A stretch of 64,000 bases of DNA from an uncultured bacterium (GTDB lineage Bacteria; T1Sed10-126): the NCBI GenBank assembly GCA_964631325.1, contig CAZVWJ010000012.1, positions 224 to 64,223 on the forward strand. The letters are read 5' to 3'. Position numbers and translations under genes: made by a program. The stretch's first letter is position 1; the number at the start of each line of letters is the position of its first letter. Under the pieces are notes generated by a model that did no database searches, was not told the DNA's origin, and saw only the letters and a program-made list of their open reading frames with translations. Shown here one piece after another: positions 34,348 to 50,644 of the stretch.

Positions 34348-35265
34348 TTAGTCGGTAGTGACGGTTCCGAGCAGATATTCGAGGATCGCCTGCTGGCTGT
34401 GCATCCGGTTCTCGGCCTGTTCAAAGATCCGGGAGTGCGGGCCGTCCATTACCTCATCGGTCAGCTCCTCGCCTCGATTGGCCGGCAGGCAGTGCAAGAC
34501 AATACATTTCTCTTTTGCCTGTTCAAGCAGAGACGAGTTAACCTGGTAAGGGCCAAAAGTCTCGTACCTCTGCTCGGCTTCGTCCTCGTCCCCCATACTG
34601 ACCCAGACATCCGTGTAGATGGCATCGGCCCCGCTAACTGCGGCCTGCGGATCAGTAGTTACCTCGATCCCGGAATTTCTTTCCTGCATTGGTTTTAGGA
34701 CTTCGTCTTTTGGAGCAAACTGTTGGGGGGCGCAGACAGTAAGGTCAAAACCAAATATTCCGGCGGCATTAATCAGGGAATGGCAGACATTATTTCCATC
34801 GCCGATATAAGTTAATTTAGCCTCTTTCAGACTGCCGGTAACTTCTTCCTGGATAGTCATCACGTCCCCCATTGCCTGGCAGGGGTGACAGAGATCTGTC
34901 AGGCCGTTAATCACGGGAATACTGGCACCGGCGGCAAGATCCTCAACATCACTGTGCTCAAAAGTACGGATCATCATAATATCCACGTAACGGGAGAGGG
35001 TTTTACCCGTATCGCCGATAGTTTCCCCACGAGAGAGCTGAAGTGTTTCTTCGCCCAGGTACATCGACGTTCCTCCCAACCGATGCATAGCCATGCGGAA
35101 GGAAACATTGGTCCGGGTAGAAGGTTTAGTGAAAATCATGGCCAGAGCTTGATCTTCACCCCGGCGTGGAGTTGCTCCCTGTTTTAGTTCAATGGCTCGA
35201 TCAATAATTGACTGCAGGGTTTCCCGTTCATAATCGGTCAGAATAACAAGATCACGTTTACTCAT
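34348..35265 (-). CDS. argF: ornithine carbamoyltransferase-family protein
   Basis: STRTR motif (FTKPSTRTNVSF), HPCQ, HCLP motifs; 305 aa. Confidence 0.75.
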   Translation of the reverse strand: MSKRDLVILTDYERETLQSIIDRAIELKQGATPRRGEDQALAMIFTKPSTRTNVSFRMAMHRLGGTSMYLGEETLQLSRGETIGDTGKTLSRYVDIMMIRTFEHSDVEDLAAGASIPVINGLTDLCHPCQAMGDVMTIQEEVTGSLKEAKLTYIGDGNNVCHSLINAAGIFGFDLTVCAPQQFAPKDEVLKPMQERNSGIEVTTDPQAAVSGADAIYTDVWVSMGDEDEAEQRYETFGPYQVNSSLLEQAKEKCIVLHCLPANRGEELTDEVMDGPHSRIFEQAENRMHSQQAILEYLLGTVTTD

Positions 35266-36455
35266 GTTTCAAGCACCGCCTCAACGTCTTTTAATCCATT
35301 CCCGGTAACCAGACAGACAGCGGGAGTGGGTATTTCGCCTTGATTACTGCTGAATTCTTTTAAACCGGTAATACTGGTTACACCAGCCGGTTCGGCAAAA
35401 ATTCCGGTACTGCTGGCCAGTTCCGGAATCGTATCCAAAATCTCATCGTCAGAAACTGTAACAGCGTCTCCTCCGGTTTCAACCACGGAACGCACGGCCG
35501 CGACACCATCGCTGGGTGAATCTACGGCAATAGAATCGGCCCGGGTGGAAGCAGAAACAGTTTCCATTTCAAAATCCTCCGAAGTTTCCCGGCCGGAATT
35601 AATCTTTTCCACAGTCCGGGCAATTGCGGCGGAAGAATCGCTCTGAACCGCAAAGATTGCCGGGAGCGAGTCAATTAATCCCAACTGCTTGAGGTCGCGG
35701 AAACCTTTCCAGACACCGCTGATAATATTTCCATCCCCGACCGGAACAAAGACTGAGCCGGGGGCCTGGAAACCAAGCTGTTCCCAGATTTCAAAAGAAA
35801 CAGATTTTTTACCTTCGCGGGTAAAGGGATTAAACCCGGTATTCCGGTTAAAATACCCGTGTTCCTCGCATTCCTCCACACAGAGCTGGAAAGCCTCGTC
35901 ATAAGTGCCGTCAACTTTGCGCACGTCAGCGCCATACACTTCCAACTGGGCAATTTTTGCCTTCGGAGCAGAAGCGGGCACAAAAATAATCACAGGCATA
36001 CCGCAAGCGGCTCCCATGCAGGCCCAGGAACAACCGGCATTCCCGGTAGAGGCGCAGGCGACTTTATCAATCCCTTTCTCAATGGCCACAGTCATCACCA
36101 CACTGCTGGCTCGGTCTTTAAAAGAAGCAGAGGGCATTCGGGAGTCATCCTTAAGATAGACAGCACCGGTCCCGGTTTTATTTTCCAGGTCACGAGCCCG
36201 GTAAAGAGGAGTAACTTCCATGTAAAGACGCGGCACATTTTCCACGTCGGCAAAGGGAAACAGGGGACTATAGCGCCAGACCTGGCTGTTGTAGTTTTGT
36301 TTTAAGACCTCAACCGAAAATTCCTCTGAGATTCCCTGGTAATCGTAGTCAGCGTCAAGTTTACCGGAGCATTTACTGCAGATGTAGTCCGCGTAATCAG
36401 CAGGATATTCGGCTCCACATTCCAGGCAGGTAAATCCGGTGTGATAATTAGCCAT
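35262..36455 (-). CDS. threonine-synthase-family PLP-dependent enzyme with N-terminal zinc ribbon
   Basis: PLP-lysine motif SFKDRASS; ASTGNAG motif; N-terminal CLECGAEY...CSKCSG. Confidence 0.65.
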   Translation of the reverse strand: MANYHTGFTCLECGAEYPADYADYICSKCSGKLDADYDYQGISEEFSVEVLKQNYNSQVWRYSPLFPFADVENVPRLYMEVTPLYRARDLENKTGTGAVYLKDDSRMPSASFKDRASSVVMTVAIEKGIDKVACASTGNAGCSWACMGAACGMPVIIFVPASAPKAKIAQLEVYGADVRKVDGTYDEAFQLCVEECEEHGYFNRNTGFNPFTREGKKSVSFEIWEQLGFQAPGSVFVPVGDGNIISGVWKGFRDLKQLGLIDSLPAIFAVQSDSSAAIARTVEKINSGRETSEDFEMETVSASTRADSIAVDSPSDGVAAVRSVVETGGDAVTVSDDEILDTIPELASSTGIFAEPAGVTSITGLKEFSSNQGEIPTPAVCLVTGNGLKDVEAVLET

Positions 36456-36458
36456 GGG

Positions 36459-37403
36459 TTAAGGCCTCACAGTGGTTCCGGCTTCCCCTTCAAGAGCAGA
36501 TTCAATTTGTTCGGGGGAAGTAATGATAGCCTCTTTGCCGCCCTGTTCCAGGTAATCAACAGCAGCTTTAACCTTGGGTTTCATACTGCCGGGGGCAAAG
36601 TGACCTTCTTCGGTGTACTGCTTGGCCTCAGCGACGGACATTTCGTCGAGTTCTTCTTCGTCGGGCTCGCCAAAATTAAGGCAGACCTTATCGACGGCCG
36701 TAGAAATCAAGAAAAGGTCGGCGTCGATATTAGAGGCCAACACAGCCGAAGCTGCGTCTTTATCAATCACAGCTTCAATACCAGCGGTAATTCCGTCTTC
36801 CCGTTCATAGACGGGAATTCCGCCTCCGCCAACGGCAATAACCGAGTCACCGCGATCAACAAGCGCGTTAATTTGGTCTTCTTCAATTATTTCTTCAGGC
36901 TTGGGTGAAGGAACAACTCGCCGGTAGCCACGGCCAGCGTCTTCAACCACGTCCCAGCCGTCTTCTTCTTCGTGCTGGTTTGCTTCATCTTTTTCCATGA
37001 AAGGACCAATCGGCTTGGAAGGATTGGAGAAAGCCGGATCATCTTTATCGACTTTGACCCGGGTGACTACGGTGACAGCGTCCTGGTCAATATCACGGCG
37101 ATCAAATTCGTTTTTCAGAACCTGCTGAAAGGTATAACCAATTGCGCCCTGGGTATCGGCAACGCAGGAGTCCAGGGGAACCTTGTGAAGACCAGCCTGT
37201 TTCTGAGCCAGTTCAGCCCGCAGGAGAATGAAACCAACCTGGGGACCATTTCCATGGGTAACAACCACATTCCAGCCCTTCTCTATCATTCCGGCAATAT
37301 GTTTTGAAGTTGCAACCACGGCCGAATACTGGTCGGGAACACTTTCCTTACCTTCCTCGGCGATTAATGAATTTCCTCCAACTGCAATTACTGCTGTAGG
37401 CAT
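36459..37403 (-). CDS. arcC: carbamate kinase
   Basis: N-terminal AVIAVGGNSL...VVTHGNGPQVG typical of carbamate kinase; 314 aa. Confidence 0.85.
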   Translation of the reverse strand: MPTAVIAVGGNSLIAEEGKESVPDQYSAVVATSKHIAGMIEKGWNVVVTHGNGPQVGFILLRAELAQKQAGLHKVPLDSCVADTQGAIGYTFQQVLKNEFDRRDIDQDAVTVVTRVKVDKDDPAFSNPSKPIGPFMEKDEANQHEEEDGWDVVEDAGRGYRRVVPSPKPEEIIEEDQINALVDRGDSVIAVGGGGIPVYEREDGITAGIEAVIDKDAASAVLASNIDADLFLISTAVDKVCLNFGEPDEEELDEMSVAEAKQYTEEGHFAPGSMKPKVKAAVDYLEQGGKEAIITSPEQIESALEGEAGTTVRP

Positions 37404-37515
37404 TATTTTGCCTCCTTAGAATAAATTAATTTTCTTCGCACACAAATATTCAATCAAGTTAAGCATTAAGAGATTCGTTAAAACAAACCAGTAAAAGAGA
37501 TATATAAGACAATAA

Positions 37516-37557
37516 GATGGCTTGCCCGGACCGGCTGAACCGGTCGGGCAAACCATC
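37516..37557. terminator. long GC-rich hairpin between carbamate kinase and upstream carbamoyltransferase genes
   Basis: gatggcttgcccggaccggctgaaccggtcgggcaaaccatc, ~17-bp stem. Confidence 0.35.
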
Positions 37558-37594
37558 TTAGTTACACAAAAAAGGGGCAGGGTAAAATCTAAAC

Positions 37595-38632
37595 TTAACC
37601 CATCGAAAGAGCCATGTAAGCTTTCTGGACGTGAAGCCGGTTTTCGGCAATATCCAGAATAATCGAACGCGGGCCGGAAGCAACTTCATCAGTTGCTTCG
37701 TGGGTCCGGTCCACGGGCATTGGATGGGAGAAAACGCCATCGTCAGTAAGCTTCATCTTCTCCTCGTCACAGATCCAATCCGTGTATTGCATGGCCTTTT
37801 CGATCTCTTGTTCTTTCTTAAATTCACCGTCCTGGTAAGCATCTTCGCTCATCCAGTTCCGAGAATAAACAATGTCCGCGTCCTCGTAAACGTCGACGGG
37901 ATCGTGAGAAATGTCAAAACTGGTCCCGTTTTCCTTGCAGTTCTCCCGGGTCCAGCTGACAACCTCCTCGTCAAGCGCATAGCCTTTCGGGTAGGCGGTG
38001 CGGACATTCATTCCCAACCGGGAACTAATGAGCATACTTTCCTGGACGGAACAGTGGGACCGGGCAAGAGCGCCATGGCCCCAGACGTGGGCAATCGTCA
38101 AGTCCTCGAGATCTTTATCGAAGTGCTTGCGGTAGCCCATCACGTCGGCCAGGCCCTGGCAGGGATGAAACCTGTCGTGGGCAAAACTGACCAGCGGTTT
38201 ATCGAGGTACTTGTCGTATTCCCGAAGCACCTCGTCACCGCGTCCGTAGTAATCAATTTTATCCTCGAGCATGCGGATCCCGACACCGGTTCCGTAGCGG
38301 TTCATCACACCGGCGACGTCTTCAATCGTTTCTCCGCCCTGCTTTTCGGCGTCTTCGTCCAGGGATTCCAGACGCATACTGCCAGGTTCAATGTAGAGTC
38401 CGTGTCCGCCCAGCTCGGTCGCAGCAATCTCAAAGGACTGCCGGGTGCGGACGGAGGGATTGTAAAAGAACATGAGGAAGCTTCGGTCCTGGAGGACAGA
38501 ATTATACTTGTCCGAATACCGGTCCTGCTGCATTTCCTCAGCCAGTTCCACAATCTCCATAATTTCATCGCGAGAAATATCCTGAGTAGTAATCAGGGAC
38601 TTGCCGTTTAAACTGCTATCGCGCAAGGTCAT
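37595..38632 (-). CDS. YgeW-like (knotted) carbamoyltransferase paralog
   Basis: FYNPSVRTRQSFE, HPCQ motifs; 345 aa. Confidence 0.7.
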   Translation of the reverse strand: MTLRDSSLNGKSLITTQDISRDEIMEIVELAEEMQQDRYSDKYNSVLQDRSFLMFFYNPSVRTRQSFEIAATELGGHGLYIEPGSMRLESLDEDAEKQGGETIEDVAGVMNRYGTGVGIRMLEDKIDYYGRGDEVLREYDKYLDKPLVSFAHDRFHPCQGLADVMGYRKHFDKDLEDLTIAHVWGHGALARSHCSVQESMLISSRLGMNVRTAYPKGYALDEEVVSWTRENCKENGTSFDISHDPVDVYEDADIVYSRNWMSEDAYQDGEFKKEQEIEKAMQYTDWICDEEKMKLTDDGVFSHPMPVDRTHEATDEVASGPRSIILDIAENRLHVQKAYMALSMG

Positions 38633-38634
38633 CG

Positions 38635-39675
38635 TTACATCAGCGCTCCCATTACTGCTTTTTGAGCATGCAGTCGATTTTCGGCCTGGTCAAAGACAAC
38701 AGACTGATCGCCGTCCATTACTTCATCAGTGACCTCGAAGCCACGGTCAGCCGGCAGACAATGCATGTAATAGGCATTATCCTTAGCCTTGGCCATCTTC
38801 TCCTGGTCACACTTCCAGTCCTTGTTAGCTTCAAACAGTTCCGTCATCCCGGAATCATCTCCGGCGGCGACGTTCTGAAATTCGTCCTTGGCGCCCCAGC
38901 ACTTGGGATAAACCACGTCGGCGTCTTCGAAAGCCTCGTCCATGTCGTAAGAAACTTCAAAGCTACCGCCGGAATCCTCCGCGTAAGTGTCACAGGCGTC
39001 AAGAATGTCATCGTCCAGTTCGAAGCCTTTCGGCTGAGCCTGGACAACGTCCATTCCCATCTTCGAAGCGGCAATAATAGCCGACTGCGGCACACTCAGC
39101 GGTTTCTCGTAGGAAGGAGAATAGGCCCAGGACATCACAAACTTCTTGTCCTTCAAACTGCCCAGCTTCTCCTTCATTGTCATAACGTCCGTGAGTGCCT
39201 GACAGGGATGGTATTTGTCACATTCCATGTTGAGAATTGGAACGTCAGTCCAGCGAGCAAATTCTTCCATGTAGTTGCTGGCCCGGCCGTAAACCCAGCC
39301 TGTCGGGGGACCATACATCCGGATGGCAATGGCATCCCCGTAACGTTCCAGGACCCGGGCGACGTCGGAAACGCGTTCCGTAGAATACGCTTCCTCATCA
39401 CCTTCTACGGCGGGTGTGTAAATCTTGTCAGAAGCCAGGTAGTGAGCATGGCCACCGAGTTGAGTCATTCCGGACTCGAACGAATTACGGGTCCGAAGCG
39501 ACTGGTTATAAAAAATCATGTAAAGTGATTTATCCTCGAGAAGATGCGAATGCTTCTCCTCCAGGGCAAATCTCCTCTTCAGGTCAAGTCCCAGGTCAAT
39601 AAAAGTACCAATCTCTTCCTGGGAAAAATCCCTTAAGGTAAGAAAATCACGACCACGTAAACTTTTCGTTTGCAT
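38635..39675 (-). CDS. YgeW-like carbamoyltransferase paralog
   Basis: FYNQSLRTRNSFE, HPCQ, HCLPADRG motifs; 346 aa. Confidence 0.7.
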   Translation of the reverse strand: MQTKSLRGRDFLTLRDFSQEEIGTFIDLGLDLKRRFALEEKHSHLLEDKSLYMIFYNQSLRTRNSFESGMTQLGGHAHYLASDKIYTPAVEGDEEAYSTERVSDVARVLERYGDAIAIRMYGPPTGWVYGRASNYMEEFARWTDVPILNMECDKYHPCQALTDVMTMKEKLGSLKDKKFVMSWAYSPSYEKPLSVPQSAIIAASKMGMDVVQAQPKGFELDDDILDACDTYAEDSGGSFEVSYDMDEAFEDADVVYPKCWGAKDEFQNVAAGDDSGMTELFEANKDWKCDQEKMAKAKDNAYYMHCLPADRGFEVTDEVMDGDQSVVFDQAENRLHAQKAVMGALM

Positions 39676-39877: not shown

Positions 39878-41260
39878 TTAGGAAATCACCAGAATCAGAT
39901 AATCGTAAATTAAGTTTGGTAAAAATCCCAGCACCAGCACTACCCCTGCTGCGGTAAACAAAACCGCTTTATTGCTCCAGTATTTTTTTTCATCCATTTT
40001 TAGTTCTCCAGCCTCATTTTTCTCCGAAAATAGCAAAGGAGAAAGTAGTCTAAAATAGCAGGAAACCACAATTAACAGACTGACTAAAGCAAGACCGGTA
40101 AAAACAAAAAAATTAGCCCCAATGCCTGCCAGACATACGATTGTTTTTGCTGCAAAACCTGCCAGAGGCGGGAAGCCGGCCAGGGAAAGAAAAAGAATCC
40201 CCCCGGAGAAGGAGATTAATTTATTAGCTGACGGAAGTGAACTTATTGTGGCTATTGCAATTTTTTCTTCGCTTTCGGATTTAATTAACTGCAGGAGACC
40301 GGCAACCCCCATAAAAGCAGAAGTCGAGACGGTAAGGTAAAAAAGAACAGCCCGAGCGCCAGGTAAAGTCCCGGTTGCAAGTCCCAGTGTAACAAAACCG
40401 GAACGAAAAACTACCGTCCAGGCCAACAACCGTTTAAAATAATTTTGAGCAAAAGTGAAAAGACTACCTACAAGCAGTGAAATTATTGTAAAAAACAGAA
40501 ACAAATAAATCCAGGCAACGGGTATACCAGGACGTAAATAAAGCATCACTCTCAAAAGGAAACTTATTAAAGCAATTTGATAAGAGGTGGAAAGGAGAGC
40601 AAAAAGTGGCAAGGGTATCCCTTCCAGAACATCAGGTAGCCAGAAATAAAACGGTCCCAGACCAAGTTTTATCGCAACTCCGGTAACTACAATTAAAACC
40701 GAAAAGGTTACAACCGGAGACTGTGCACCGGTAAGAGCTGCTAACCCGGCCGAATGGGTGGCCAAATAAAATAAGACAATCCCCAGTAAAACAACTGCGC
40801 TGCCAATAAGATTAAAAAGATAAAATTTCAATCCAGCTTCAACAGTATGATTGCCGGGTTTATAAAGACAAAGAAAATAAAAAGCAACGGACACAAGTTC
40901 CGCTCCTACCAGGAAAACAAAAAGATTTTCAGTATAAACTACAGCAAGCAGTCCAACAGTAAGTGAAAGAACAAAAAATGACCATTCGCTATAGTTGAGT
41001 TTGTGGGTCTCCAGGTAAGGATAAGAATAGCCAAGCACCCCCAACTGAGCAACCAAAACAAGCACTCCCGCATAATTAGAGAGAGGAGAAAATTTAAATC
41101 CGGAGATGGAACCGGTAAAATTTACAAGAGTCAGACCTATTGCGATAACAATTGCAACCCCGGCCCAGACAAGAACTGTTGGAGTATCCGAGGCCACAGT
41201 TCGCCAGAGCAAAATGGCAAGAGCAGTAAAAATAATTATCCCGGGGGCAAATAAGCTCAT
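39878..41260 (-). CDS. nuoN: complex I antiporter-like subunit N
   Basis: polytopic membrane protein; position and size (460 aa) in nuo operon. Confidence 0.6.
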   Translation of the reverse strand: MSLFAPGIIIFTALAILLWRTVASDTPTVLVWAGVAIVIAIGLTLVNFTGSISGFKFSPLSNYAGVLVLVAQLGVLGYSYPYLETHKLNYSEWSFFVLSLTVGLLAVVYTENLFVFLVGAELVSVAFYFLCLYKPGNHTVEAGLKFYLFNLIGSAVVLLGIVLFYLATHSAGLAALTGAQSPVVTFSVLIVVTGVAIKLGLGPFYFWLPDVLEGIPLPLFALLSTSYQIALISFLLRVMLYLRPGIPVAWIYLFLFFTIISLLVGSLFTFAQNYFKRLLAWTVVFRSGFVTLGLATGTLPGARAVLFYLTVSTSAFMGVAGLLQLIKSESEEKIAIATISSLPSANKLISFSGGILFLSLAGFPPLAGFAAKTIVCLAGIGANFFVFTGLALVSLLIVVSCYFRLLSPLLFSEKNEAGELKMDEKKYWSNKAVLFTAAGVVLVLGFLPNLIYDYLILVIS

Positions 41261-42810
41261 AGAGTGTCCCCGCCCTTCAAACTATATCCCCGGGTAAAAT
41301 GGACCGGTCTCCGGGCCCGGGAAGGAAGCTGGTGAGGTAACTGTTGAATACTTTGATTGCGGGTAATAATCCTATTCACAACCGGTCGCAGAGGTTGGTA
41401 AAGATATTGAGGAGCAACTCCCAACCAGAGGATCAAAAAAACAAAAATGGCCAGAAGAACATATCCCAATCTGGAAACCGGTTTATCTTTAAGAATACAT
41501 TCAGAACCGGATACAAAAACCGCGTGGTGAATAAATTTTAAAGCAAAGGGAAGCGACAGAAGAACAGTCAGCAAACTGGCGCCCAGCAGGAGAGGATTTG
41601 CAGTTAAAGTCGAAAAAATTGCCACTCTCCCGATAAAACCGGAAGTGCCAATCAAACCTATAGAAGCAAATAAAAGAAAAATAAGAATAGCAGCCATTCC
41701 CGGGTGTGAGTCAGCCAGGCCCTGAAAAACCGATAAATTAGCAGGGGCGGCGCGATTTCTAAAAAATCCAACAAAGAAAAATAAACCGGTAACAATTAAA
41801 CTATAACTGAGCGCCTGATACAGGGCTCCGGTAATACTGCTGGTTGAGAGGTTGAACAGTCCCAGAAATACAACCCCCAGTTGTCCGTAAGCCGAATAAA
41901 TTATCAATTTTAAATAATTATCCTGCAACCAGGCAGCCAAGAAACAATACCCGGTCTGAAATATAGCCAGTAAACTCAGCCACCAAGTATAATCTACCAG
42001 CCAGGAATAGGTCAGGGGATATAAAAAACGGACAAAACCATAAATACCGGTATTAATAACAATACCGACGAATAAAACCGCAAAAGCCGGAGAAAGCTCT
42101 TTTAACAAAGCAGTAGTTTTACCATGCAGAGGAAACAGGGCTGACCTGAGTCCAAAGCTCAAAAGCAATCCCAAAAATATCCAGCCCGTGCCGGGCACTT
42201 CAAGGGCGGAAAGCTCAGAAAATCTCAAACCACTTCCCGCAAGCTGTTGTAAGTTCAAATAGTAGATAAACATAACTACAAAAAATAGCAAAAAGCTGCC
42301 GGCCAGTGAACGAATCAGGTAACGGTGAGCCACTTTTTCATCACTTGACCGAACAACGAGCAAGTATACAGGAATGAGCAAAAATTCCCAGAAAAAGTAA
42401 AAAAGGAATACGTCCCGGGAAAAATAAAGTCCAAACAGGGTTCCGGCAGCCAGAAGGAAAGCCGGATAAAAATAAGCGGGCTGTTCAAGTTTTTCCAGGA
42501 GAAGATAAAGGAGGACAAGTAAAAGTAAAAAAACTGTAAAAAAGAAGAAAACAGAGCTGAGCAAGTCAGCAGCCAGAAGGAATTTTGAGTCAAGTGGAGC
42601 GAGAAACCAGTTGAAATTTACCGCTGACCAGAAACCAATCAGAGGCCGCGAACTGTGGGCGGGAAGCCAGCTCCAGACCACAGCTCCAACCACTCCCGGG
42701 AGCCCAACCGCCAAAAATGTCCACCAAATTGAGTAGCGTTCCGCCGGTGAAAAATAAAAAAGAGCCGTGGCAATTAGATAGGGAAACAAAACAATAAACA
42801 AAAGTAACAT
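41257..42810 (-). CDS. nuoM: complex I antiporter-like subunit M
   Basis: 517-aa polytopic membrane protein, operon position. Confidence 0.6.
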   Translation of the reverse strand: MLLLFIVLFPYLIATALFYFSPAERYSIWWTFLAVGLPGVVGAVVWSWLPAHSSRPLIGFWSAVNFNWFLAPLDSKFLLAADLLSSVFFFFTVFLLLLVLLYLLLEKLEQPAYFYPAFLLAAGTLFGLYFSRDVFLFYFFWEFLLIPVYLLVVRSSDEKVAHRYLIRSLAGSFLLFFVVMFIYYLNLQQLAGSGLRFSELSALEVPGTGWIFLGLLLSFGLRSALFPLHGKTTALLKELSPAFAVLFVGIVINTGIYGFVRFLYPLTYSWLVDYTWWLSLLAIFQTGYCFLAAWLQDNYLKLIIYSAYGQLGVVFLGLFNLSTSSITGALYQALSYSLIVTGLFFFVGFFRNRAAPANLSVFQGLADSHPGMAAILIFLLFASIGLIGTSGFIGRVAIFSTLTANPLLLGASLLTVLLSLPFALKFIHHAVFVSGSECILKDKPVSRLGYVLLAIFVFLILWLGVAPQYLYQPLRPVVNRIITRNQSIQQLPHQLPSRARRPVHFTRGYSLKGGDTL

Positions 42811-42879
42811 TTAAGTCCTCCGAATCAGCCAGATAAATTCAACAGCCAAGTGCAACATAAAACATCAACGACTTCCACT

Positions 42880-42990
42880 ATAGCTCCCCTCCCCTGATGG
42901 GAGGTAATTAAGGGAAGGGGGATGATAACGTGAACAGTGTTCACCCCCACCTAACCTCCCTCATCAGGGTGAGGGATGTTGGAAGGGAAA
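42880..42990. repeat. GC-rich hairpin repeat in nuoM-nuoL intergenic gap (related copy at 60375-60535)
   Basis: cccctgatgggaggtaattaagggaagggggatg vs cccttgatgggggaggactaaggtgggggtgaaa; local hairpins ccctca..tgaggg. Confidence 0.5.
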
Positions 42991-43056
42991 TTGTTGCATT
43001 TGTTAATTGAATCCAAGGCTCATAATTTAACGCAGACACACATATTATTTACCACT

Positions 43057-44895
43057 CTAATACAAACAAAGTAAGTACAGGCACAGAATTATAAAAGTAA
43101 GACCGAAAACACAAAAGCGGAGATACCGGCTAAGCTGACCTGGCTGTTGAAATCGAAGCAAAGTGCTGCACACTCCGAGAATTTTTTCCACACTGTTCCA
43201 GGCCGGTTCAATAATATTTTTCTCGCTAATTTGTATACTTTTTCGAGTAAAATTTTGAACCGGATAAACGAAAATCCCAGTAATCATCTGTCGTGGGGAA
43301 AAATTAAAAATGGATATTTTCTGAGACAAACCTCTAAAACTACTTGTAAATCGAAGCCAATTTACTTCCCGAACATAAAGTAAATAAGCAATAAAAATAA
43401 TCCCAATTTCAAACATTACTTCCAACAGAAGGAAATAACCGTTTAGAGCCCAAAAATTTAAAAAAGTGAGCGGGAAATAAATAGTTCCCATCAAAAATCC
43501 CCCGAAAATAGCGAAAGGAGATAATCCCAGGATAGAATAACGAAGTAATTTTCTATCTTCATGTACGGTGCCGGGGGGACGGCGGTTACTGACAAACAAA
43601 ACAAAGATAAGCCGAAAAGAATAAAAGATAGTCAGGTAGCGAACAACCAGAAGACCAACAAAATAGATGAAATTAAGGCCGCTGAAAATTTTCCCCACGG
43701 CTGGAAACAAAGAGATGTAGGACCAGAAGCCACCAAACGGAGGAATACCGGCGAGACTGAGAGAACCAACAATTGTTCCAAAGGCAGTTACCGGAACAAT
43801 CTTTCCCAGCCCCCCCAGTTCAAATAGATCGTATTTTTGACAGGTCAAAGTTAGCACTCCAAGGGAAAGAAAAATCAATATTCTCGCAAAAGCCTGGTTT
43901 AGTAAATGAAAAATTGCGCCGGAAAACAAGCTATTTCCGACCACGGCAAACAATAAACCAAGCTGACTCAGGGAAGAAAAAGAAAGGAATTTTTTCAAAT
44001 CTCGTGCCCTGGCGGCAACCAAAGCTCCGAAAATTGCCGTTACTAATCCTACGGGAACAATTATCCTTTTAAACCACAAGAAGCCTGAGAATATAAAATC
44101 AAAACGATGCAGAAAATAAATACCGCAAATCGGCAAAATAACAGTTTGAATAAAGCCGCCGCCCGGGAGGGGTCCGGAAAGGGTATTAGAAAGCCAGGCA
44201 TAAAATGGAAACTGAGCAGTTTTAATAATTATTCCAAACAACAAAAGTGTTCCCAAGTAAAATTGAGTCGCGGGCTGAAGTTCGGAAATTAAACTGACCA
44301 GCCCATCTATTTGCGTGCTTCCACCAAGTTCAGCAAGGTAAATAAAACCGGCAAACAAGAATACTGAACCCAGTAGATTAAACGAAAAAGTTACGTTGGA
44401 ACGGGCTCCAGTCTCTTCGCTCTGATTCCAGTAGCCGGAAAACAGGTAAAGGAACACAGACAGCACTTCCCAGGTTAAAAGAAGGAGAAAAAGATCACCG
44501 GCGGCAAGAAAAAAGAGAAAATTCACGGTCAATAAATTTAAAAACGTAAAATAGGTCGAGGGACGAGAAGATTCAACAAAATCAAGTGAATAAAACTGAA
44601 CGAAAAAATTAACAGTGGTTACAACCGTGTAAAATATCAGAGTGTAAACAGTAAAAGAAAAAGTAAAGGTAAAAGTGAATTCATCGAGTTGAATCAGTTG
44701 ATAGAAGGGCCAGGGATCAGTAGCACCAACTCCAACTAATAGTGATATCCAGGCAAGGAGAGCAGCAACACAGGCTCCGGTAACTGAAAGTCGTGATTTC
44801 AACCTGAAGTCATAGGCGTTAAAATTCACCAGGTTGAACAGAGCCGGATAAACAAGAGCGAGTGTCATCAAGATAAAAAAGATTAATGTGACCAA
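43057..44895 (-). CDS. nuoL: complex I antiporter-like subunit L
   Basis: 612-aa polytopic membrane protein, operon position. Confidence 0.6.
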   Translation of the reverse strand: MVTLIFFILMTLALVYPALFNLVNFNAYDFRLKSRLSVTGACVAALLAWISLLVGVGATDPWPFYQLIQLDEFTFTFTFSFTVYTLIFYTVVTTVNFFVQFYSLDFVESSRPSTYFTFLNLLTVNFLFFLAAGDLFLLLLTWEVLSVFLYLFSGYWNQSEETGARSNVTFSFNLLGSVFLFAGFIYLAELGGSTQIDGLVSLISELQPATQFYLGTLLLFGIIIKTAQFPFYAWLSNTLSGPLPGGGFIQTVILPICGIYFLHRFDFIFSGFLWFKRIIVPVGLVTAIFGALVAARARDLKKFLSFSSLSQLGLLFAVVGNSLFSGAIFHLLNQAFARILIFLSLGVLTLTCQKYDLFELGGLGKIVPVTAFGTIVGSLSLAGIPPFGGFWSYISLFPAVGKIFSGLNFIYFVGLLVVRYLTIFYSFRLIFVLFVSNRRPPGTVHEDRKLLRYSILGLSPFAIFGGFLMGTIYFPLTFLNFWALNGYFLLLEVMFEIGIIFIAYLLYVREVNWLRFTSSFRGLSQKISIFNFSPRQMITGIFVYPVQNFTRKSIQISEKNIIEPAWNSVEKILGVCSTLLRFQQPGQLSRYLRFCVFGLTFIILCLYLLCLY

Positions 44896-44899
44896 AATA

Positions 44900-45196
44900 T
44901 CACCATTTTAACTCCGAATAACAATCCGGATCCGGGACTTCTCCAACCCGGGTTAAATACACCATCAACAGAGAACCACAAACAAAATTACAGAAAAAAG
45001 CAGTAAGAATAAAAAGGACATACCCCCGGTCAGATTCAAGGGCAAGAAACTGGGCCATGACACTGACTAAAAAACTGAGTGCAATTATCATAAGTTCGGC
45101 GGAAAGCAAAATATTCAATAAATTTTTCCGGTAAAATAGACCAAAAAAACCTATTAAAAAGAGCAACAATCCAAGCAGTAGATAATAAAAATACAT
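44900..45196 (-). CDS. nuoK: complex I subunit K
   Basis: 98 aa, 3 TM, operon position. Confidence 0.6.
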   Translation of the reverse strand: MYFYYLLLGLLLFLIGFFGLFYRKNLLNILLSAELMIIALSFLVSVMAQFLALESDRGYVLFILTAFFCNFVCGSLLMVYLTRVGEVPDPDCYSELKW

Positions 45197-45213
45197 TATT
45201 GCTTACTCCTCCC

Positions 45214-45726
45214 CTACTCTTCCCCGGAAAAATCAAGTAAATATATACTGCCCACGAGGGTGACAACCAGCAAGAGGGCAAGTAATGAAAATACGGCAAA
45301 ATAATTTTGAGCGGCTAATTCGGCTGTAAACTGTAATGCTCCGCCACCGGCCAGAGAAAAAGCAAAATCTCCAGGCAATCCGGGAGCGTAACTTAATTTC
45401 AAAAAGATAAGTAAAAGGAGCAGTCCCAGAAGTAGAACTTGGAGAAAGATAAAAAAATTCACAGCGTCTAAACGCAAAAAAGTTTCACCAGATGATTGTG
45501 AACACAAAAGTATAGCAAAAACAAAAGCACCACTGGTGCCCCCACCAAAAAATACCATCAAAAACAATCCCAGAAAAGGACGGTTCAACAGAAAAAAAAG
45601 TACCCCGAGGCCAAATAGTACTACCAGCAGACCGAGTAAATTCTGAAAAAACGAACGGCTAAAGATTACAACGGTTGCTCCAACAAGAGAAATTAAAGCC
45701 ATGAGAAAAAATAAAAGCTGTTCCAT
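45214..45726 (-). CDS. nuoJ: complex I subunit J
   Basis: 170 aa membrane protein, operon position. Confidence 0.55.
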   Translation of the reverse strand: MEQLLFFLMALISLVGATVVIFSRSFFQNLLGLLVVLFGLGVLFFLLNRPFLGLFLMVFFGGGTSGAFVFAILLCSQSSGETFLRLDAVNFFIFLQVLLLGLLLLLIFLKLSYAPGLPGDFAFSLAGGGALQFTAELAAQNYFAVFSLLALLLVVTLVGSIYLLDFSGEE

Positions 45727-46934
45727 TATTTTTCACCTGACCGTGCCCGTCGAGGTTCTATCAATTTAACAGTATTCGTATTATCAGGATAAAGTTGCCC
45801 TGAAACAAGGCTCAAAAAAATAATTACAAGCCAGACAAGTTGAACAGACACCCAGTAAAAAACTGAAACGGGAAAAATCAACTTAAGCAGCCCGGCTAAC
45901 AAAAGATTACACCAGGTCAGAGGAATTAAATACTGCCAGCACAAATTCATTAATTGAGGATATTTTAACCGGGGGTAAAAAGTAGCGAGCCGGACCAGTA
46001 AATAAATAATCAGCCCTGTTTTAAGCCCAAACCAACCAAGGTGCCAGAATAAATTAAATCCCGGAAAAAAACCATCAATGACCGGGGGAAACAAACTGCT
46101 TACCGGGGGGACCCAGCCACCGAGAAATAGAACCGTAAACAAACTGGCCTGTGCAAATAAGACAAGATACTGAGTAAACACAGTAAAAAAGCTAATTTTA
46201 CGGTTGACCGAAAATTCAGGTTCTAATCCTTCTAAATAGAAAGTAAAACGCCGGTGGAAGAAAAAAATGATAATTAAATAAAGAACAGCTAACAGAGGCT
46301 GATAAAACAATAACCACCCCTGGTTCAGTTGATATTTAACAATTTGAAACAAATTAAGGGAGCCGGAGCAAATTACCAGACCGGGGAGAACGAAAACCCA
46401 GGCAAACAAGAGGGAAAACAGTAAAGCCAACTCCCGGATTTTACTCCACCCTGACTCCGAGCTCCAGAGCCTGGGGAGCTGGCCGAGAAAAAACAGAAAC
46501 ACACAGACCACCACAATGAGCAGACCTAATTCGGGAGTGGCGACAACAAGTAGAGGAAACTCGGATAGTCCGGGATGTAGTTGTGATAGTGAGAGGCTAA
46601 CTCGACCAAACGGAAGCACAGCAAACAGAAAAAGAAAACCAGTGACTGAAATTACGTTTCCAAGTCGAACAAATAAATGGTAATTGGCCGATTTAGTTCC
46701 GGTTTCATCCAGCCTCCCCGGGTTATTCGTTCCAACTGGAGGCAACCACTTTTGAGAATTAAATGGGGATATTATAAAGTCAGTAACTTTTATTTGAGCG
46801 GAGAAAAAATAAACCAACCCCCCGATTATGACTAAAATTAAAATTAAAAAAAACAGGGATTTAGAGACCAGGGCAATGCAAAATAAAAACCAGTAATAAA
46901 TTTTAACCACTTCCCCCGGAAATCGTAAGGTCAA
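45726..46934 (-). CDS. nuoH: complex I subunit H with N-terminal extension
   Basis: C-terminal LVRLATFYPRLKYPQLMNLCWQYLIPL matches NuoH R-x-PR-x-R-x-DQL motif; 402 aa. Confidence 0.7.
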   Translation of the reverse strand: MTLRFPGEVVKIYYWFLFCIALVSKSLFFLILILVIIGGLVYFFSAQIKVTDFIISPFNSQKWLPPVGTNNPGRLDETGTKSANYHLFVRLGNVISVTGFLFLFAVLPFGRVSLSLSQLHPGLSEFPLLVVATPELGLLIVVVCVFLFFLGQLPRLWSSESGWSKIRELALLFSLLFAWVFVLPGLVICSGSLNLFQIVKYQLNQGWLLFYQPLLAVLYLIIIFFFHRRFTFYLEGLEPEFSVNRKISFFTVFTQYLVLFAQASLFTVLFLGGWVPPVSSLFPPVIDGFFPGFNLFWHLGWFGLKTGLIIYLLVRLATFYPRLKYPQLMNLCWQYLIPLTWCNLLLAGLLKLIFPVSVFYWVSVQLVWLVIIFLSLVSGQLYPDNTNTVKLIEPRRARSGEK

Positions 46935-48039
46935 AACTTGAAATTATGGCCCGACTATCGGCAAGGCTGGTAGCTTCAACTAATTTTTGTAAAACAAAGT
47001 AATTATGGGATGCCGGATTTCGTTGGTAGAACCGAAGACAATCAGATTGGGGGCGGGATTCGACAGACCAACCTAATTCTCCGGCCGGGGCTTCCAGACA
47101 ATAATAAAATTCCCCGGTCGGAAGGTCGTTATCTTTAACCTCAAGAACAAAATCGTCGGATTTTTTAATGTTGGTTAACGGCCGGAGTGCTCGACCAGAA
47201 TTCAGCGGTCCCTCCGCCTCTATATTCTCCAGACACTGCTCAAGAATATATAGGCTCTGCTGGATTTCCTTGAATCGAACCAGAAACCGATCATAACTGT
47301 CCCCGTGTTCCCCGACGGGAAGACTGAAATCAACAGAGTCAAACATAAAATAAGGTTCAGCAGAACGCAAATCCCAATTAACCCCCGTAGCCCGCAAACA
47401 TGGACCGGTTAACGACCAGTCGAGCGCCGGCTCAATCGCCAGTTCACCCACCTGCCGGGTGCGTTTTTTAAAAAAAATGGAGAAAAAGTATCTCTTTTCA
47501 AAAAACTGTAAAGAAGAAGTGAGTTGATCCAGAACAGATTGAAAAACTGAATGAAAGTTTGTGGGTAATGGTCCTTTGAAACCACCCATTCGAACCAGGT
47601 TCTTACCAAAGGGGGTGCTATTAATTTGAGCAAGTGCCCGGGAAATAACCTGGTGGGCTGAGAGAAGATTATCTGCCGGTAAAGCTGCTCCTAAATTTCG
47701 AAATCCACCGGCCAATAAACTCAGATGAGCCCGGATTCGAAACAATTCACTAAAAAATGTCCGCAGCCAACTGGCCCGGCGGGGAATTTTCCGGTCCAGA
47801 AAATTTTCAAGCGCCATAACCAGAGCCAGTTGAGACCAGGAAAACTGTTGCAGGTCCGGAGACTCAGGAGGCTGTTTTTCAGTCGACGCCGCAGTAGATA
47901 TTTCTACCGGGAGTTTAGCGGCTTCTATAAACTCAGCAGTCTTTACCCGGCCATTTTTAAGATGAAGTTTAATTGCCCCGGCTTGATTGTTTCCCGGTAA
48001 AGGAACCAGAAAAGTTGAAGCTTCAACTTGAGTAATCAT
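46903..48039 (-). CDS. nuoD: complex I 49-kDa subunit homolog (NuoD-like), divergent, lacking conserved quinone-site His/Tyr
   Basis: aligns with Nqo4 over ALENFLDRKIPRRASWLRTFFSELFRIRAHL, VRMGGFKGPLP, LTGPCLRATGVNWDLR, PTGEFYYCLEAPAGELGW; N-terminal GPQHPxxHG replaced by LPGNNQAGA. Confidence 0.7.
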   Translation of the reverse strand: MITQVEASTFLVPLPGNNQAGAIKLHLKNGRVKTAEFIEAAKLPVEISTAASTEKQPPESPDLQQFSWSQLALVMALENFLDRKIPRRASWLRTFFSELFRIRAHLSLLAGGFRNLGAALPADNLLSAHQVISRALAQINSTPFGKNLVRMGGFKGPLPTNFHSVFQSVLDQLTSSLQFFEKRYFFSIFFKKRTRQVGELAIEPALDWSLTGPCLRATGVNWDLRSAEPYFMFDSVDFSLPVGEHGDSYDRFLVRFKEIQQSLYILEQCLENIEAEGPLNSGRALRPLTNIKKSDDFVLEVKDNDLPTGEFYYCLEAPAGELGWSVESRPQSDCLRFYQRNPASHNYFVLQKLVEATSLADSRAIISSFDLTISGGSG

Positions 48040-48515
48040 TTTGATTTATTTTTTACCAGATTAATTTCGAATGGTTCAGAAGAACTCACTTTGCCAGCTT
48101 CAAGGGGAGACAATTTTTCCGTTACTTCCAGGTTGAAACGATGACTGATTTTTGCTTCGTACTGGCGGGCCCCGGGCCAGAGAGGAGAAACCGAGGGGAA
48201 CCGACCCCGGGCTTCCAACGTAGTAGAGACGACAGCTCGGCCGGCTAAATTAAACGAATAGAGCCAGTAAAAGAGTTCAATCAAGTTATTTTCGGGAACA
48301 GTTACAGCAGCACTAATAGTTGAAAGATGGAGAAAATAATAAGGTTTACCATCTTTAAGCGTCCGGCAGACCGGCAAGATATTTTCAGCAGAGACCTTAA
48401 TTTTAACTATATTTTGGGGAGTAAGAGTAGTTTTTAGGGAACCAGAGTCAGCCAGCTTTTCCTCAAGAAAATCAGCTATCCTGGTGGGGGATAAAAAATC
48501 CTCGGAAGGACACAT
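48036..48515 (-). CDS. nuoC: complex I 30-kDa subunit homolog
   Basis: PSVSPLWPGARQYEAKISHRFNLEV matches NuoC core. Confidence 0.6.
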   Translation of the reverse strand: MCPSEDFLSPTRIADFLEEKLADSGSLKTTLTPQNIVKIKVSAENILPVCRTLKDGKPYYFLHLSTISAAVTVPENNLIELFYWLYSFNLAGRAVVSTTLEARGRFPSVSPLWPGARQYEAKISHRFNLEVTEKLSPLEAGKVSSSEPFEINLVKNKSK

Positions 48516-48544
48516 TTAATTTTGCGCTAACGTTTTATTAAACT

Positions 48545-48889
48545 TCATTCCCACTGAAAGACACCATGTTTCCAGGCATAAAGATAGCCAGCCGTAAAAC
48601 TAATGGCCAGGGGGAGAAAAGCAGTGACAATGACCGGTTCAGTAAAGAGGGAGGAATTTAAGAGGAGTGCCCATCCAAAAACAAAAATTAGAGAAAAACT
48701 AAGGAGCAAGCAAACAAACCAAAATTTTAAAAAATCGCCAAAAAAATTAATGCGCGAAAGAGAGAACGTAAAACCAGGGGCCTTGCTTTCCCGGAAACAA
48801 AGCGTTACCAGTGGAAAGCAGACCAAGAATGCAACAGCAATAATAAATATAACCACTGGAAGCCAGGTGAGAATTAGTTCCTGTGTCAT
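48545..48889 (-). CDS. nuoA: complex I subunit A
   Basis: 114 aa, 3 TM, first gene of cluster. Confidence 0.55.
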   Translation of the reverse strand: MTQELILTWLPVVIFIIAVAFLVCFPLVTLCFRESKAPGFTFSLSRINFFGDFLKFWFVCLLLSFSLIFVFGWALLLNSSLFTEPVIVTAFLPLAISFTAGYLYAWKHGVFQWE

Positions 48890-50644
48890 TCACAATTTAC
48901 CGACAGTTTTTTGCCAGAATTCTGGTAAAATATCTGAGAACTTACGATCTTTTATTTCTCCAATATTGTCCGCGTCTTTGTTTGCTTCAACAATTTCCCT
49001 GGTTTTTTCTTCCCGGATATCAATATATTCTTCCAGTTCAATAATAGCCCGGAGCATTTTATCCTTGTTCCAGTTTTCCCATAAACCACGACCAAATAAT
49101 CGGCCCAGGAGAGCCACTTTTGAAGATTTAAGAACATGTAGTTCAGGGATTTTATCTTCAATACCGGCATAACTTCCCTGGACCAAACTTTTAATCAGGT
49201 GGTGAACCGGCCAGGAAGAAAGTTGATTCTGAGCAATAAATCTAACCATTTTAAAGCAGGAAAGAATATTAATCCCTCCGTGAAATTCCCTGTCTCTAAG
49301 AGCCGGGTAATTTTTAAGAGCGGGAAGCCAGTGTTCAATCAACTTGCTCTCGTCAACCGCTTCACACCGAAAATAAGGACAATCAGTTAACACTCCGTCC
49401 TCATACATTTTTTGAAACCAGCGCGAGGCAACGGGGCGATCAGCTATTTTTAACATCTCCTCGGTTATTCGTTCTTTGCTCACAGTTTCCAGGCGAGAAA
49501 TATTTGAACGAATATTTTTCTGAAGCTGTTCGGAGAAGTTCAACTTATGATCAGCCGCGAGGCGGTAAGCACGAAGGATTCGAAGAGGATCATTTTCCAG
49601 GGCATCCTCCCGGGTAAGACGGAGAACCCTCTGGTCAGCATCAGCCCGCCCCTCCACAGGATCAACCCAGGCTTCCCTGTCCATATCAAGGGCAATGCTG
49701 TTAATAGTAAAATCACGACGGCGAAGATCATCAACAACTTTTTCTTCACCTACCACGGTTAAATCCACCTGAGTTTTATCACCCGGCAACCGGTACATTT
49801 GACGCTCCTCATCAAGAGTAAACCACTTGCCGGCCAGTTCATCAGCCAATTTATTCTGCACTGATTCCGGAAATTCTGAGGCCATCAGATCGTAATCTTC
49901 CGGCTGTTTACCGGTAAGTAAATCGCGAATAGTCCCACCAACCAGAAAAACTCCAATATCCTCGTCCAGAAAGGGACGGGTAATTACTTCAATTCTTTCC
50001 CGCTCCTCACGAGCAGTCCGGTCAGCCAGGCGGAGTGGCTCAGGGAGACGGGATTTTTCAGAAAGCAGGGGCTCAATCACTTCCGGAATATAATTGGGCT
50101 CAATCATGTGGCCCGGGGAAAGAAATATGGGGGAGGCGCCTGCCTGAGACCGGACAGCAAAACCGACCGGTTCACCGTCCCAGATTGAAGTATGCTCCCC
50201 TACCTCTTCTCCCGGTTCATCGCACTCGCCCACCAGAATATTTTTTGCACAACCAATGGAGGGGGTATCAAGGAACAATCCCACGTGGGAAGCAAGGCCC
50301 ATGCGCCGGGGATGCGCGTAACCATGGCCGTCAATTAGAAAACAGTCCGGTTCCGTCTCCAAACACATTGCCGCGTCAATCATCGGGGGAGCTTCCCGAA
50401 AGGCAAGCAAACCGGAAATATAGGGGAAATTTAACTCAGAAATCAGGACAACTTTTTCGTGGATTCTATGGTCAGCGACGGAGTAGTTAATTGCCGAAGC
50501 GATGCAAATCCGGCTCTCGGGATAAAAAGAAACGTCCAGCGCAGCAATTAGATTAATATCCGGTTCACCTTTGAGGAGACAATCTTCAGCCAACTCTTCC
50601 TGCAACATGCGAGCCTCGTCTTCATTCAGGTCCCAGGGGTGCAC
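48890..50644 (-). CDS. fusion protein: N-terminal endonuclease V (Nfi) + C-terminal class II tRNA nucleotidyltransferase (CCA/poly(A) polymerase head-neck-body, no HD domain)
   Basis: DGHGYAHPRRMGLASHVGLFLDTPSIGCAK aligns with E. coli Nfi [30 protein letters not shown]; then VGGTIRDLLTGKQPEDYDLM (GGxVRD...DxD) and RRDFTINSIALDM of pol-beta-type CCA enzymes; 584 aa. Confidence 0.75.
   Translation of the reverse strand: MHPWDLNEDEARMLQEELAEDCLLKGEPDINLIAALDVSFYPESRICIASAINYSVADHRIHEKVVLISELNFPYISGLLAFREAPPMIDAAMCLETEPDCFLIDGHGYAHPRRMGLASHVGLFLDTPSIGCAKNILVGECDEPGEEVGEHTSIWDGEPVGFAVRSQAGASPIFLSPGHMIEPNYIPEVIEPLLSEKSRLPEPLRLADRTAREERERIEVITRPFLDEDIGVFLVGGTIRDLLTGKQPEDYDLMASEFPESVQNKLADELAGKWFTLDEERQMYRLPGDKTQVDLTVVGEEKVVDDLRRRDFTINSIALDMDREAWVDPVEGRADADQRVLRLTREDALENDPLRILRAYRLAADHKLNFSEQLQKNIRSNISRLETVSKERITEEMLKIADRPVASRWFQKMYEDGVLTDCPYFRCEAVDESKLIEHWLPALKNYPALRDREFHGGINILSCFKMVRFIAQNQLSSWPVHHLIKSLVQGSYAGIEDKIPELHVLKSSKVALLGRLFGRGLWENWNKDKMLRAIIELEEYIDIREEKTREIVEANKDADNIGEIKDRKFSDILPEFWQKTVGKL

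Follow-up and report, generated by a model that had tools for sequence, protein, structure and literature searches.

A putative redox-dead derivative of the complex I operon conserved in Candidatus Salsurabacteriota

Introduction

Can a complex I operon outlive the redox chemistry of its product? This question is raised by a cluster of nuo-like genes at positions 39878-48889 (minus strand) of a 64,000-nucleotide stretch of DNA from an uncultured bacterium of GTDB lineage T1Sed10-126 (GCA_964631325.1, contig CAZVWJ010000012.1, positions 224 to 64,223; the whole stretch is hereafter called the window). The cluster encodes homologues of nine complex I subunits, and neither of the iron-sulfur (Fe-S) subunits NuoB and NuoI is among them. 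Here we propose that it is a redox-dead descendant of a complex I (nuo) operon, conserved in Candidatus Salsurabacteriota and kept for its architecture, a reading to which we give somewhat better than an even chance. The phylum T1Sed10-126, which takes its name from the genome T1Sed10_126 and for which the name Candidatus Salsurabacteriota has been proposed, comprises extremely halophilic organisms that have acidic proteomes and are reported to be probably capable of respiration (bioRxiv 10.1101/2024.03.10.584303). The literature open to searching yielded no account of such an architecture, the string 'nuoACDHJKLMN' in one Acidobacteria paper being shorthand only, and the supplements of published work on the phylum hold no nuo information.

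Gene order and absent subunits

The cluster consists of nine consecutive open reading frames (ORFs) that match, by Pfam and NCBIfam, nuoA, nuoC, nuoD, nuoH, nuoJ, nuoK, nuoL, nuoM and nuoN in this order. The genes are tightly packed: 29 bp separate nuoA from nuoC, the C/D and M/N pairs overlap by 4 bp each and the H/J pair by 1 bp, and the nuoD-like and nuoH-like genes overlap as well, with no NuoE remnant between them. The 29-bp gap leaves no room for nuoB; likewise, the nuoJ-like gene starts inside the end of nuoH, so that nuoI cannot be accommodated either. Both the contiguous order and the lack of space for NuoB and NuoI had been pointed out in an earlier interpretation made by a model from the letters alone (the sequence-only reading), and both hold. 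The sole sizeable gap, of 246 bp, lies between L and M; it contains no ORF, folds at −82.7 kcal/mol (z = −3.3 against shuffles) with paired hairpin arms of the CCCTC/GAGGG type, and matches no Rfam family. On the upstream side, the start of the nuoA-like gene abuts the stop of a gene that fuses endonuclease V (EndoV) to the head of a CCA-adding/poly(A) polymerase.

The absent subunits were not detected in the rest of the window. Among its other ORFs scanned with Pfam, none matched PF01058 (NuoB) or Fer4 (NuoI) or was a homologue of NuoE, NuoF or NuoG, and a tblastn search of the whole 64-kb window with canonical NuoB, I, E, F and G gave nothing above 27 bits. Scans of the window for promoters and terminators returned background levels only, and the window contains neither Rfam matches nor tRNAs.

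Four genomes with the same architecture

The architecture recurs in four genomes, namely that of the window and three sisters: CAZMIT010000027.1 (GCA_964566495.1), PWOD01000122.1 (CSSed10_354m, GCA_003557545.1) and PWHN01000062.1 (T1Sed10_126). All four share the EndoV/CCA-type fusion gene, the series A-C-D-H-J-K-L-M-N and two carbamoyltransferase genes, and carbamate kinase comes next in the three contigs that reach further. Specifically, A runs directly into C and H directly into J in every genome (A and C overlap in the sisters), and the NuoA-like protein keeps its position and its three transmembrane (TM) segments throughout. NuoB, I, E, F and G are not detectable on any of the three sister contigs, and no candidate partner gene is conserved beside the cluster in the four genomes. 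The fusion gene encodes 584 amino acids in all four, lies 0-15 bp upstream of nuoA and may be co-transcribed with the nuo-like cluster. Since layout and losses recur in three further genomes, the architecture is not a product of chance. Synteny, together with carbamoyltransferase identities of 85-88%, suggests that the window belongs to the lineage of T1Sed10_126.

The sisters were found through the neighbouring carbamate kinase, whose relatives at 84% and 79% identity led to contigs that were then shown to be syntenic; the fourth genome came from a GTDB genome scan with an alignment of three NuoD-like proteins. When the NuoD-like and NuoH-like proteins served as queries in word-indexed homology searches, nothing came back but each query and canonical Nuo proteins of at most 34% identity; the sister clusters have diverged too far to be caught in this way. 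A GTDB genome scan with a single sequence found nothing, and exact look-up of the window proteins gave singleton clusters only. Scanning of JGI metagenomes added one contig, whose tblastn scores against canonical subunits are the same as those of T1Sed10_126 and which may represent the same organism. The nuo-like family is rare.

The nearest NuoD and NuoH matches that we inspected were ordinary, being an orphan nuoD gene, split A-B-C-D-x-H-I clusters or 14-subunit operons. A canonical-looking orphan nuoD (399 amino acids; locus L002, 10001-11200) stands on a metagenome contig of 540 kb; no second nuo gene lies within 10 kb of it. A NuoH annotated as hypothetical in Omnitrophica (MNVS01000059.1; locus L011, 8-7009) was ruled out as a sister, as it belongs to a different nuo variant: D-E-F, a 23S rRNA intervening sequence protein (IVP) gene, G-H-I and then two small unassigned ORFs, with no antiporter-like L/M/N genes downstream.

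The NuoD-like protein and the quinone site

In NuoD the quinone headgroup is liganded by His38 and Tyr87 (Thermus thermophilus numbering), which correspond to His224 and Tyr273 of Escherichia coli NuoCD. The best PDB match of the NuoD-like protein by phmmer is T. thermophilus Nqo4 (143 bits, query residues 63-372), which agrees with the alignment to the Nqo4 core noted in the sequence-only reading; the large subunit of the MBH hydrogenase scores 59 bits, so that the protein is closer to complex I than to hydrogenase. Compared with the closest canonical relatives, GPQHPxxHG is replaced by LPGNNQAGA, whereby His38 becomes Ala, the GYLHRGxEK block is missing, PESPD stands in place of DRxDY, which holds Tyr87, and SGGSG in place of the C-terminal GExDR. 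The alignment therefore bears out the His and Tyr losses claimed earlier, including the LPGNNQAGA replacement. The earlier placement of the Tyr region at FSWSQLAL needs correction: in the phmmer alignment this motif falls just past Tyr87 (Nqo4 88-96), and the Tyr87 position itself is taken by Asp62.

The same losses extend through the clade. GPxHPxxHG, GYLHRGxEK and GExDR are absent from all four NuoD homologues, and the quinone-site His is lost in all four genomes; the Tyr is lost in three, with a possibly aligned Tyr in one sister. Nevertheless, the NuoD-like protein of the window is predicted to keep the NuoD fold. Its AlphaFold model (predicted local distance difference test, pLDDT, 87; predicted template-modelling score, pTM, 0.89) has as top Foldseek matches the 49-kDa/NuoD subunits of complex I (template-modelling score 0.77-0.79), and residues 51-65, which would hold Tyr87, are disordered in it.

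Key residues of the membrane subunits

We audited 39 canonical quinone-site, E-channel and antiporter residues, with the E. coli operon, two canonical 14-subunit operons and PDB alignments as references. Key positions of the membrane subunits were checked against the E. coli sequence, and two NuoCD positions that proved wrong were excluded. The window keeps 13 of the 39 positions and the sisters 5-7, and only the Glu-TM5/Lys-TM7 pair of NuoN and His241 of NuoM are invariant in all four genomes.

Among the antiporter-like subunits of the window, the NuoL-like protein keeps Glu-TM5 and Lys-TM7 and has His-TM8 replaced by Gln, Lys-TM11 by Arg, Lys-TM12 by Tyr and Asp400 by Ile. The NuoM-like protein keeps Glu-TM5, with Lys-TM7 changed to Arg, Lys-TM8 to Asn and Glu-TM12 to Arg. 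The NuoN-like protein retains Glu-TM5, Lys-TM7 and Lys-TM12, and has Gln for Lys-TM8; across the four genomes, its Lys-TM12 is kept in three, Lys-TM8 becomes Gln or Arg, and His224 is replaced by Tyr. Along the E-channel, Asp79/Glu81 of NuoA are both Ser, Tyr59 of NuoJ is Phe, and Glu72 of NuoK is Asn in the window and Gln in the sisters. The NuoH-like protein lacks Glu157 and the N-terminal ERRxxQxRxGPN and LQxxAD motifs; of the carboxylates in its TM5-6 loop, some remain in the window and none in the sisters, and PRxRYDQ survives as PRLKYPQ.

Additionally, canonical positions vary from genome to genome (Glu-TM5 of NuoL, E/L/S/S; Lys-TM7 of NuoM, R/V/V/G; Glu36 of NuoK, E/L/L/F, with the Glu in the window alone), and these differing substitutions indicate that the audited positions are no longer constrained. 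Positions invariant in all four genomes make up 5-14% of each subunit and are mainly Gly, Pro, Trp or Tyr, with almost no charged residue among them in A, H, J, K, L and M. All four also retain the numbers of TM segments and, in the discontinuous helices TM7 and TM12, the Gly/Pro breaks.

Divergence confined to the nuo-like genes

The nuo-like proteins reach 0.12-0.8 of the NCBIfam cutoffs. The NuoA-like protein is matched weakly by PF00507 (17 bits, below cutoff) and by PRK08489 (17.6 against a cutoff of 145). The NuoC-like protein scores 43 bits with PF00329 (profile positions 1-85 of 124) and 34 against 122 with NuoC_fam, and the NuoD-like protein 181 bits with PF00346 and 203 against 360 with the NCBIfam NuoD model. 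For the NuoH-like protein the values are 99 bits (PF00146) and 87 against 305 (NCBIfam NuoH), with a best PDB match of just 39 bits, and the NuoJ-like and NuoK-like proteins obtain 46 bits (PF00499) and 44 bits (PF00420). The NuoL-like protein aligns over residues 17-608 with the NCBIfam NuoL model (254 against 556) and has Nqo12 as top PDB match, the NuoM-like protein scores 208 against 264 with TIGR01972 and has Nqo13 as top PDB match, and the NuoN-like protein scores 217 against 333 with TIGR01770. Three proteins of CSSed10_354m, those like NuoA, NuoK and NuoL, have no Pfam match left at all. The neighbouring genes exceed their cutoffs (ornithine carbamoyltransferase, OTCase, 407 against 306; carbamate kinase, 416 against 266; NadB, 545 against 453; KdsB, 280 against 193), so that the divergence is specific to the nuo-like cluster and not a property of the whole genome.

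The comparison of the window with its sisters gives the same picture. Protein identity is 72-88% for the carbamoyltransferases (85-88% when taken by themselves), carbamate kinase and PALP, 57-67% for the EndoV fusion and 21-37% for the nuo-like proteins, while nonsynonymous divergence (dN) is 0.08-0.35 for the neighbours and 0.7-1.1 for the nuo-like genes. At the DNA level (blastn), the flanks align at 64-80% identity and the whole nuo region gives no match. In the closest pair, T1Sed10_126 and CAZMIT010000027.1, the nuo-like proteins are 58-79% identical, and the concatenated genes have an approximate ratio of nonsynonymous to synonymous divergence (dN/dS) of 0.17 (bootstrap 0.14-0.19; 2,812 codons), compared with 0.04 for the EndoV fusion and 0.02 for the carbamoyltransferases. 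This estimate comes from the closest pair only, since synonymous sites are saturated in the distant pairs; there, identity by codon position falls in the order second, first, third. The nuo-like genes are under purifying selection, about 4-8 times weaker than that on their neighbours, and with a dN/dS of this size they are not pseudogenes.

Split nuo clusters

Gene order alone does not establish that an enzyme lacks Fe-S subunits. The order A-C-D-E-H-J-K-L(-M-N) occurs at about 21 GTDB loci, mostly of Ca. Binatia, and at several metagenome loci (listed in Table 1). The subunits that bear [4Fe-4S] clusters, namely B, F, G and I, are not encoded within 10 kb of them, and we know of no published description of such split clusters. 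Their NuoD has GPSHPATHG, GYLHRGFEK and GECDR intact, NuoE is present, and in L033, the sole split cluster scanned with Pfam, NuoA, C, D, E, H and J have canonical scores (NuoD, 346 bits). The split clusters presumably belong to ordinary enzymes, with the genes for the Fe-S subunits at another place in the genome. The existence of these clusters means that the absence of B and I from a cluster does not prove an Fe-S-less enzyme, and that gene order is weaker evidence than the sequence-only reading had assumed. The Salsurabacteriota clusters differ from them in the joint loss of quinone site, NuoH tunnel motifs, E-channel and antiporter relay, and in that all these positions are unconstrained within the clade.

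Interpretation and alternatives

A plausible origin of the cluster would be an ancestral split nuo arrangement with its Fe-S subunits elsewhere, of which the second locus may have been lost and the remaining operon repurposed. On our reading, the cluster has given up all that makes complex I a proton pump driven by redox chemistry: the Q-module Fe-S subunits NuoB and NuoI and any electron-input module, the His/Tyr quinone site of NuoD, the quinone-tunnel motifs of NuoH, the E-channel carboxylates of NuoA/H/J/K and, in NuoL and NuoM, the greater part of the Lys/Glu/His relay. The nine proteins have retained length, TM counts, Gly/Pro breaks, NuoD fold and gene order. They may still assemble into an L-shaped, cofactor-free complex whose selected property would be architecture and not chemistry, that is, a 'pseudo-enzyme' complex I that would serve in the membrane as a scaffold or as a docking platform. 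No more than one residual ion path would be left, which we place in the NuoN-like subunit since it alone has the invariant Glu-TM5/Lys-TM7 pair, and such a redox-dead derivative probably no longer pumps. We regard as evenly balanced the fuller claim that a cofactor-free nine-subunit descendant of complex I serves a non-redox role, as a scaffold or platform or through a new NuoN ion path, with no Fe-S partners anywhere in the genome.

The sequence-only reading had already suggested a redox-dead module, and this suggestion is strengthened by the absence of Fe-S subunits from the cluster, the window and three sister contigs and by the loss of the quinone motifs in all four NuoD homologues and of the NuoH tunnel motifs. 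It had further offered an energy-converting or ion-translocating scaffold with a different partner; the results do not support this, with most E-channel and antiporter Lys/Glu/His residues gone and differing among genomes and with no conserved partner gene. Its other option, a degenerate copy, is apt for the proteins, which are strongly degenerate relative to complex I, but not for the genes, whose dN/dS is 0.17 and whose ORFs are intact throughout four genomes that have diverged deeply. The cluster encodes a maintained complex, presumably functional, rather than decaying pseudogenes.

Several points weigh against a redox-dead complex kept for its architecture. Splits of this kind do occur, as is shown by the canonical clusters that have the same order and no B or I, and nuoB and nuoI, or equally degenerate copies of them, could sit elsewhere, the established absence covering the window and the sister contigs. 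One sister NuoD has a Tyr at the Tyr87-equivalent position in the MAFFT alignment. More generally, the residue calls come from alignments at 25-35% identity, in which single positions are possibly misaligned, and one canonical-looking NuoM (L008) also lacks Lys-TM7 in the alignment, so that single substitutions are not decisive by themselves. The closest-pair dS is high (proportion of synonymous differences, pS, 0.65), which makes the dN/dS approximate.

Three other explanations have to be weighed. The membrane arm, freed from redox chemistry, could work as a secondary ion transporter, a cation/proton antiporter of the Mrp type or a channel, which would suit an extreme halophile of the salt-in kind; this explanation, which overlaps with the one we prefer, strikes us as unlikely. 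Three antiporter-like subunits are present, the NuoL lateral-helix region and the Gly/Pro motifs of the discontinuous helices are kept, NuoN has its invariant Glu-TM5/Lys-TM7 pair and, in three of the four genomes, Lys-TM12, and the host phylum is extremely halophilic. Mrp and the other characterised relatives, however, need a Lys/Glu/His relay, which is lost here in L and M and unconserved within the clade; moreover, the E-channel carboxylates are gone, and A, H, J, K, L and M have almost no invariant charged residues. We consider it distinctly improbable that the cluster is one part of a split operon, with nuoB and nuoI (perhaps also E, F and G) elsewhere in the genome and a working, very divergent oxidoreductase as product. 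The Binatia-type loci, whose NuoD motifs are canonical, show that Fe-S subunits can indeed be encoded apart, and respiration has been reported as probable for members of the phylum (bioRxiv 10.1101/2024.03.10.584303); yet true split clusters retain every NuoD motif, whereas here all four genomes have lost them and, besides, the tunnel motifs of NuoH, the carboxylates of the E-channel and the antiporter relay. Furthermore, key positions vary among the four genomes, as would be unexpected in a working enzyme, and no NuoE remnant is found between D and H.

A non-functional remnant, that is, an operon decaying once complex I respiration had become dispensable and with ORFs intact by chance or through the recency of the decay, is in our estimate very improbable. 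Such decay would be consistent with the very low family-model scores, with some sister subunits that have no Pfam match at all, with the vanished catalytic residues and with a dN 3-30 times that of the neighbours. Against it stand nine intact ORFs (about 9 kb) whose order and similar lengths are kept in four genomes with saturated synonymous sites, a dN/dS whose bootstrap interval lies far below 1, and preserved translational-coupling overlaps.

Relation to known systems

The cluster clearly descends from complex I, yet it lacks what defines a functional complex I, an Ehr or Mbx complex, or an Mrp antiporter. It resembles complex I/NDH-1, especially the 11-subunit form without NuoEFG, in that homologues of A, C, D, H, J, K, L, M and N follow one another in exact nuo order, and in the NuoD fold, the TM-segment counts and the retention of a full-length NuoL; seven membrane subunits plus NuoC and NuoD are thus present with their family folds. 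Unlike complex I, the cluster has no NuoB, NuoI, NuoD His/Tyr site, NuoH tunnel motifs or E-channel carboxylates and has lost most of the antiporter relay, and the set of NuoB with the [4Fe-4S] cluster N2, NuoI with two [4Fe-4S] clusters, quinone ligands and charged relay that marks a functional enzyme was found neither in the window nor at the sister loci. In addition, the scores of all its subunits lie far under the curated cutoffs, and their rate of evolution is several times that of the adjoining genes. With the Binatia-type split clusters it shares the order and the absence of nuoB after nuoA and of nuoI after nuoH, but it is without NuoE and without any of the NuoD motifs.

Ehr and Mbx/Mbs are relatives of complex I and group 4 hydrogenases with a NuoD-like subunit that lacks the catalytic ligands. 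Ehr and Mbx are hydrogenase-derived and retain a small subunit of the NuoB type and, in most cases, a ferredoxin subunit of the NuoI type, whereas the window cluster is nuo-derived and has neither. Specifically, the combination of a hydrogenase-type large and a NuoB-like small subunit with Mrp-like modules, as in Ehr, Mbx and group 4 hydrogenases, is not found: the NuoB-like subunit is absent, and NuoA and NuoJ are present in nuo-like fashion. The likeness to Mrp lies in a redox-independent membrane complex of NuoL/M/N-like and NuoK-like subunits; Mrp has MrpB, E, F and G, has no NuoH/A/C/D and keeps a Lys/Glu relay, whereas the window cluster is of the nuo type, contains no MrpA-G set and has lost the conserved relay. 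To our knowledge, all studied relatives of complex I (Nuo, NDH-1, Fpo, Mbh/Mbx/Mbs and Ehr) keep the NuoB/NuoD/NuoH junction and at least one Fe-S cluster, and Mrp, as far as we know, keeps its charged relay.

If our proposal is true, the architecture of complex I has selectable value apart from redox-driven pumping, and the Salsurabacteriota clusters would be a natural experiment on what folding and assembly require as against catalytic residues, and on how far a large membrane complex can drift. Annotation would be affected as well, since a pipeline relying on nuo gene counts would assign a working complex I to Ca. Salsurabacteriota by mistake.

Feature coordinates and neighbouring genes

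Table 1. Features of the nuo-like cluster and its upstream gene in the window, and loci of canonical split nuo clusters.
Feature	Position	Strand	Remarks
nuoA-like	48545..48889	-	114 aa (amino acids), 3 TM segments
nuoC-like	48036..48515	-	159 aa
nuoD-like	46903..48039	-	378 aa
nuoH-like	45726..46934	-	402 aa from TTG start; 394 aa in public call
nuoJ-like	45214..45726	-	170 aa
nuoK-like	44900..45196	-	98 aa
nuoL-like	43057..44895	-	612 aa, full length including C-terminal lateral-helix region
L-M intergenic spacer	42811..43056	-	long imperfect hairpin
nuoM-like	41257..42810	-	517 aa
nuoN-like	39878..41260	-	460 aa, least degenerate membrane subunit
EndoV + CCA/poly(A)-polymerase-head fusion	48890..50644	-	584 aa; PF04493 + PF01743 + PF12627
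GTDB split loci	L033 8758-18557		also L016, L024, L027-L029, L034, L037-L039, L043-L046, L048, L052, L055, L061, L062, L076
Metagenome split loci			L117, L121, L122, L127, L155

The fusion gene upstream of the cluster joins endonuclease V and the CCA-adding/poly(A)-polymerase head to an RNA-binding domain. In two sister genomes, an ApbE flavin transferase gene stands divergently upstream of it (L041 65-1102; L047 5978-7015); ApbE hints at flavoprotein complexes of the Nqr or Rnf type, which could have made complex I dispensable.

Downstream of the cluster, positions 34348-39675 (minus strand) carry three carbamoyltransferase paralogues, a carbamate kinase and a pyridoxal phosphate (PLP) enzyme. 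One of the paralogues is a true OTCase; the other two are nearest to the N-acetylornithine carbamoyltransferase and OTCase models and match YgeW more weakly. Between the four genomes the proteins of this block are 72-99% identical, quite unlike those of the nuo-like genes next to it. At the other end of the window (1-21650), the first 14 kb are low in GC (34-39%) and run into an apparent defence island that reaches to about 21.6 kb. The island includes a KAP P-loop NTPase (967 amino acids), a 1481-amino-acid protein with a helix-turn-helix (HTH)-upstream-of-double-PIN domain, a 733-amino-acid tetratricopeptide repeat (TPR) protein, a type IIG restriction-modification enzyme of the Eco57I/MmeI-like kind (1285 amino acids), a PLD/SNF2 helicase (1081 amino acids) and a Schlafen/AlbA_2 regulator.

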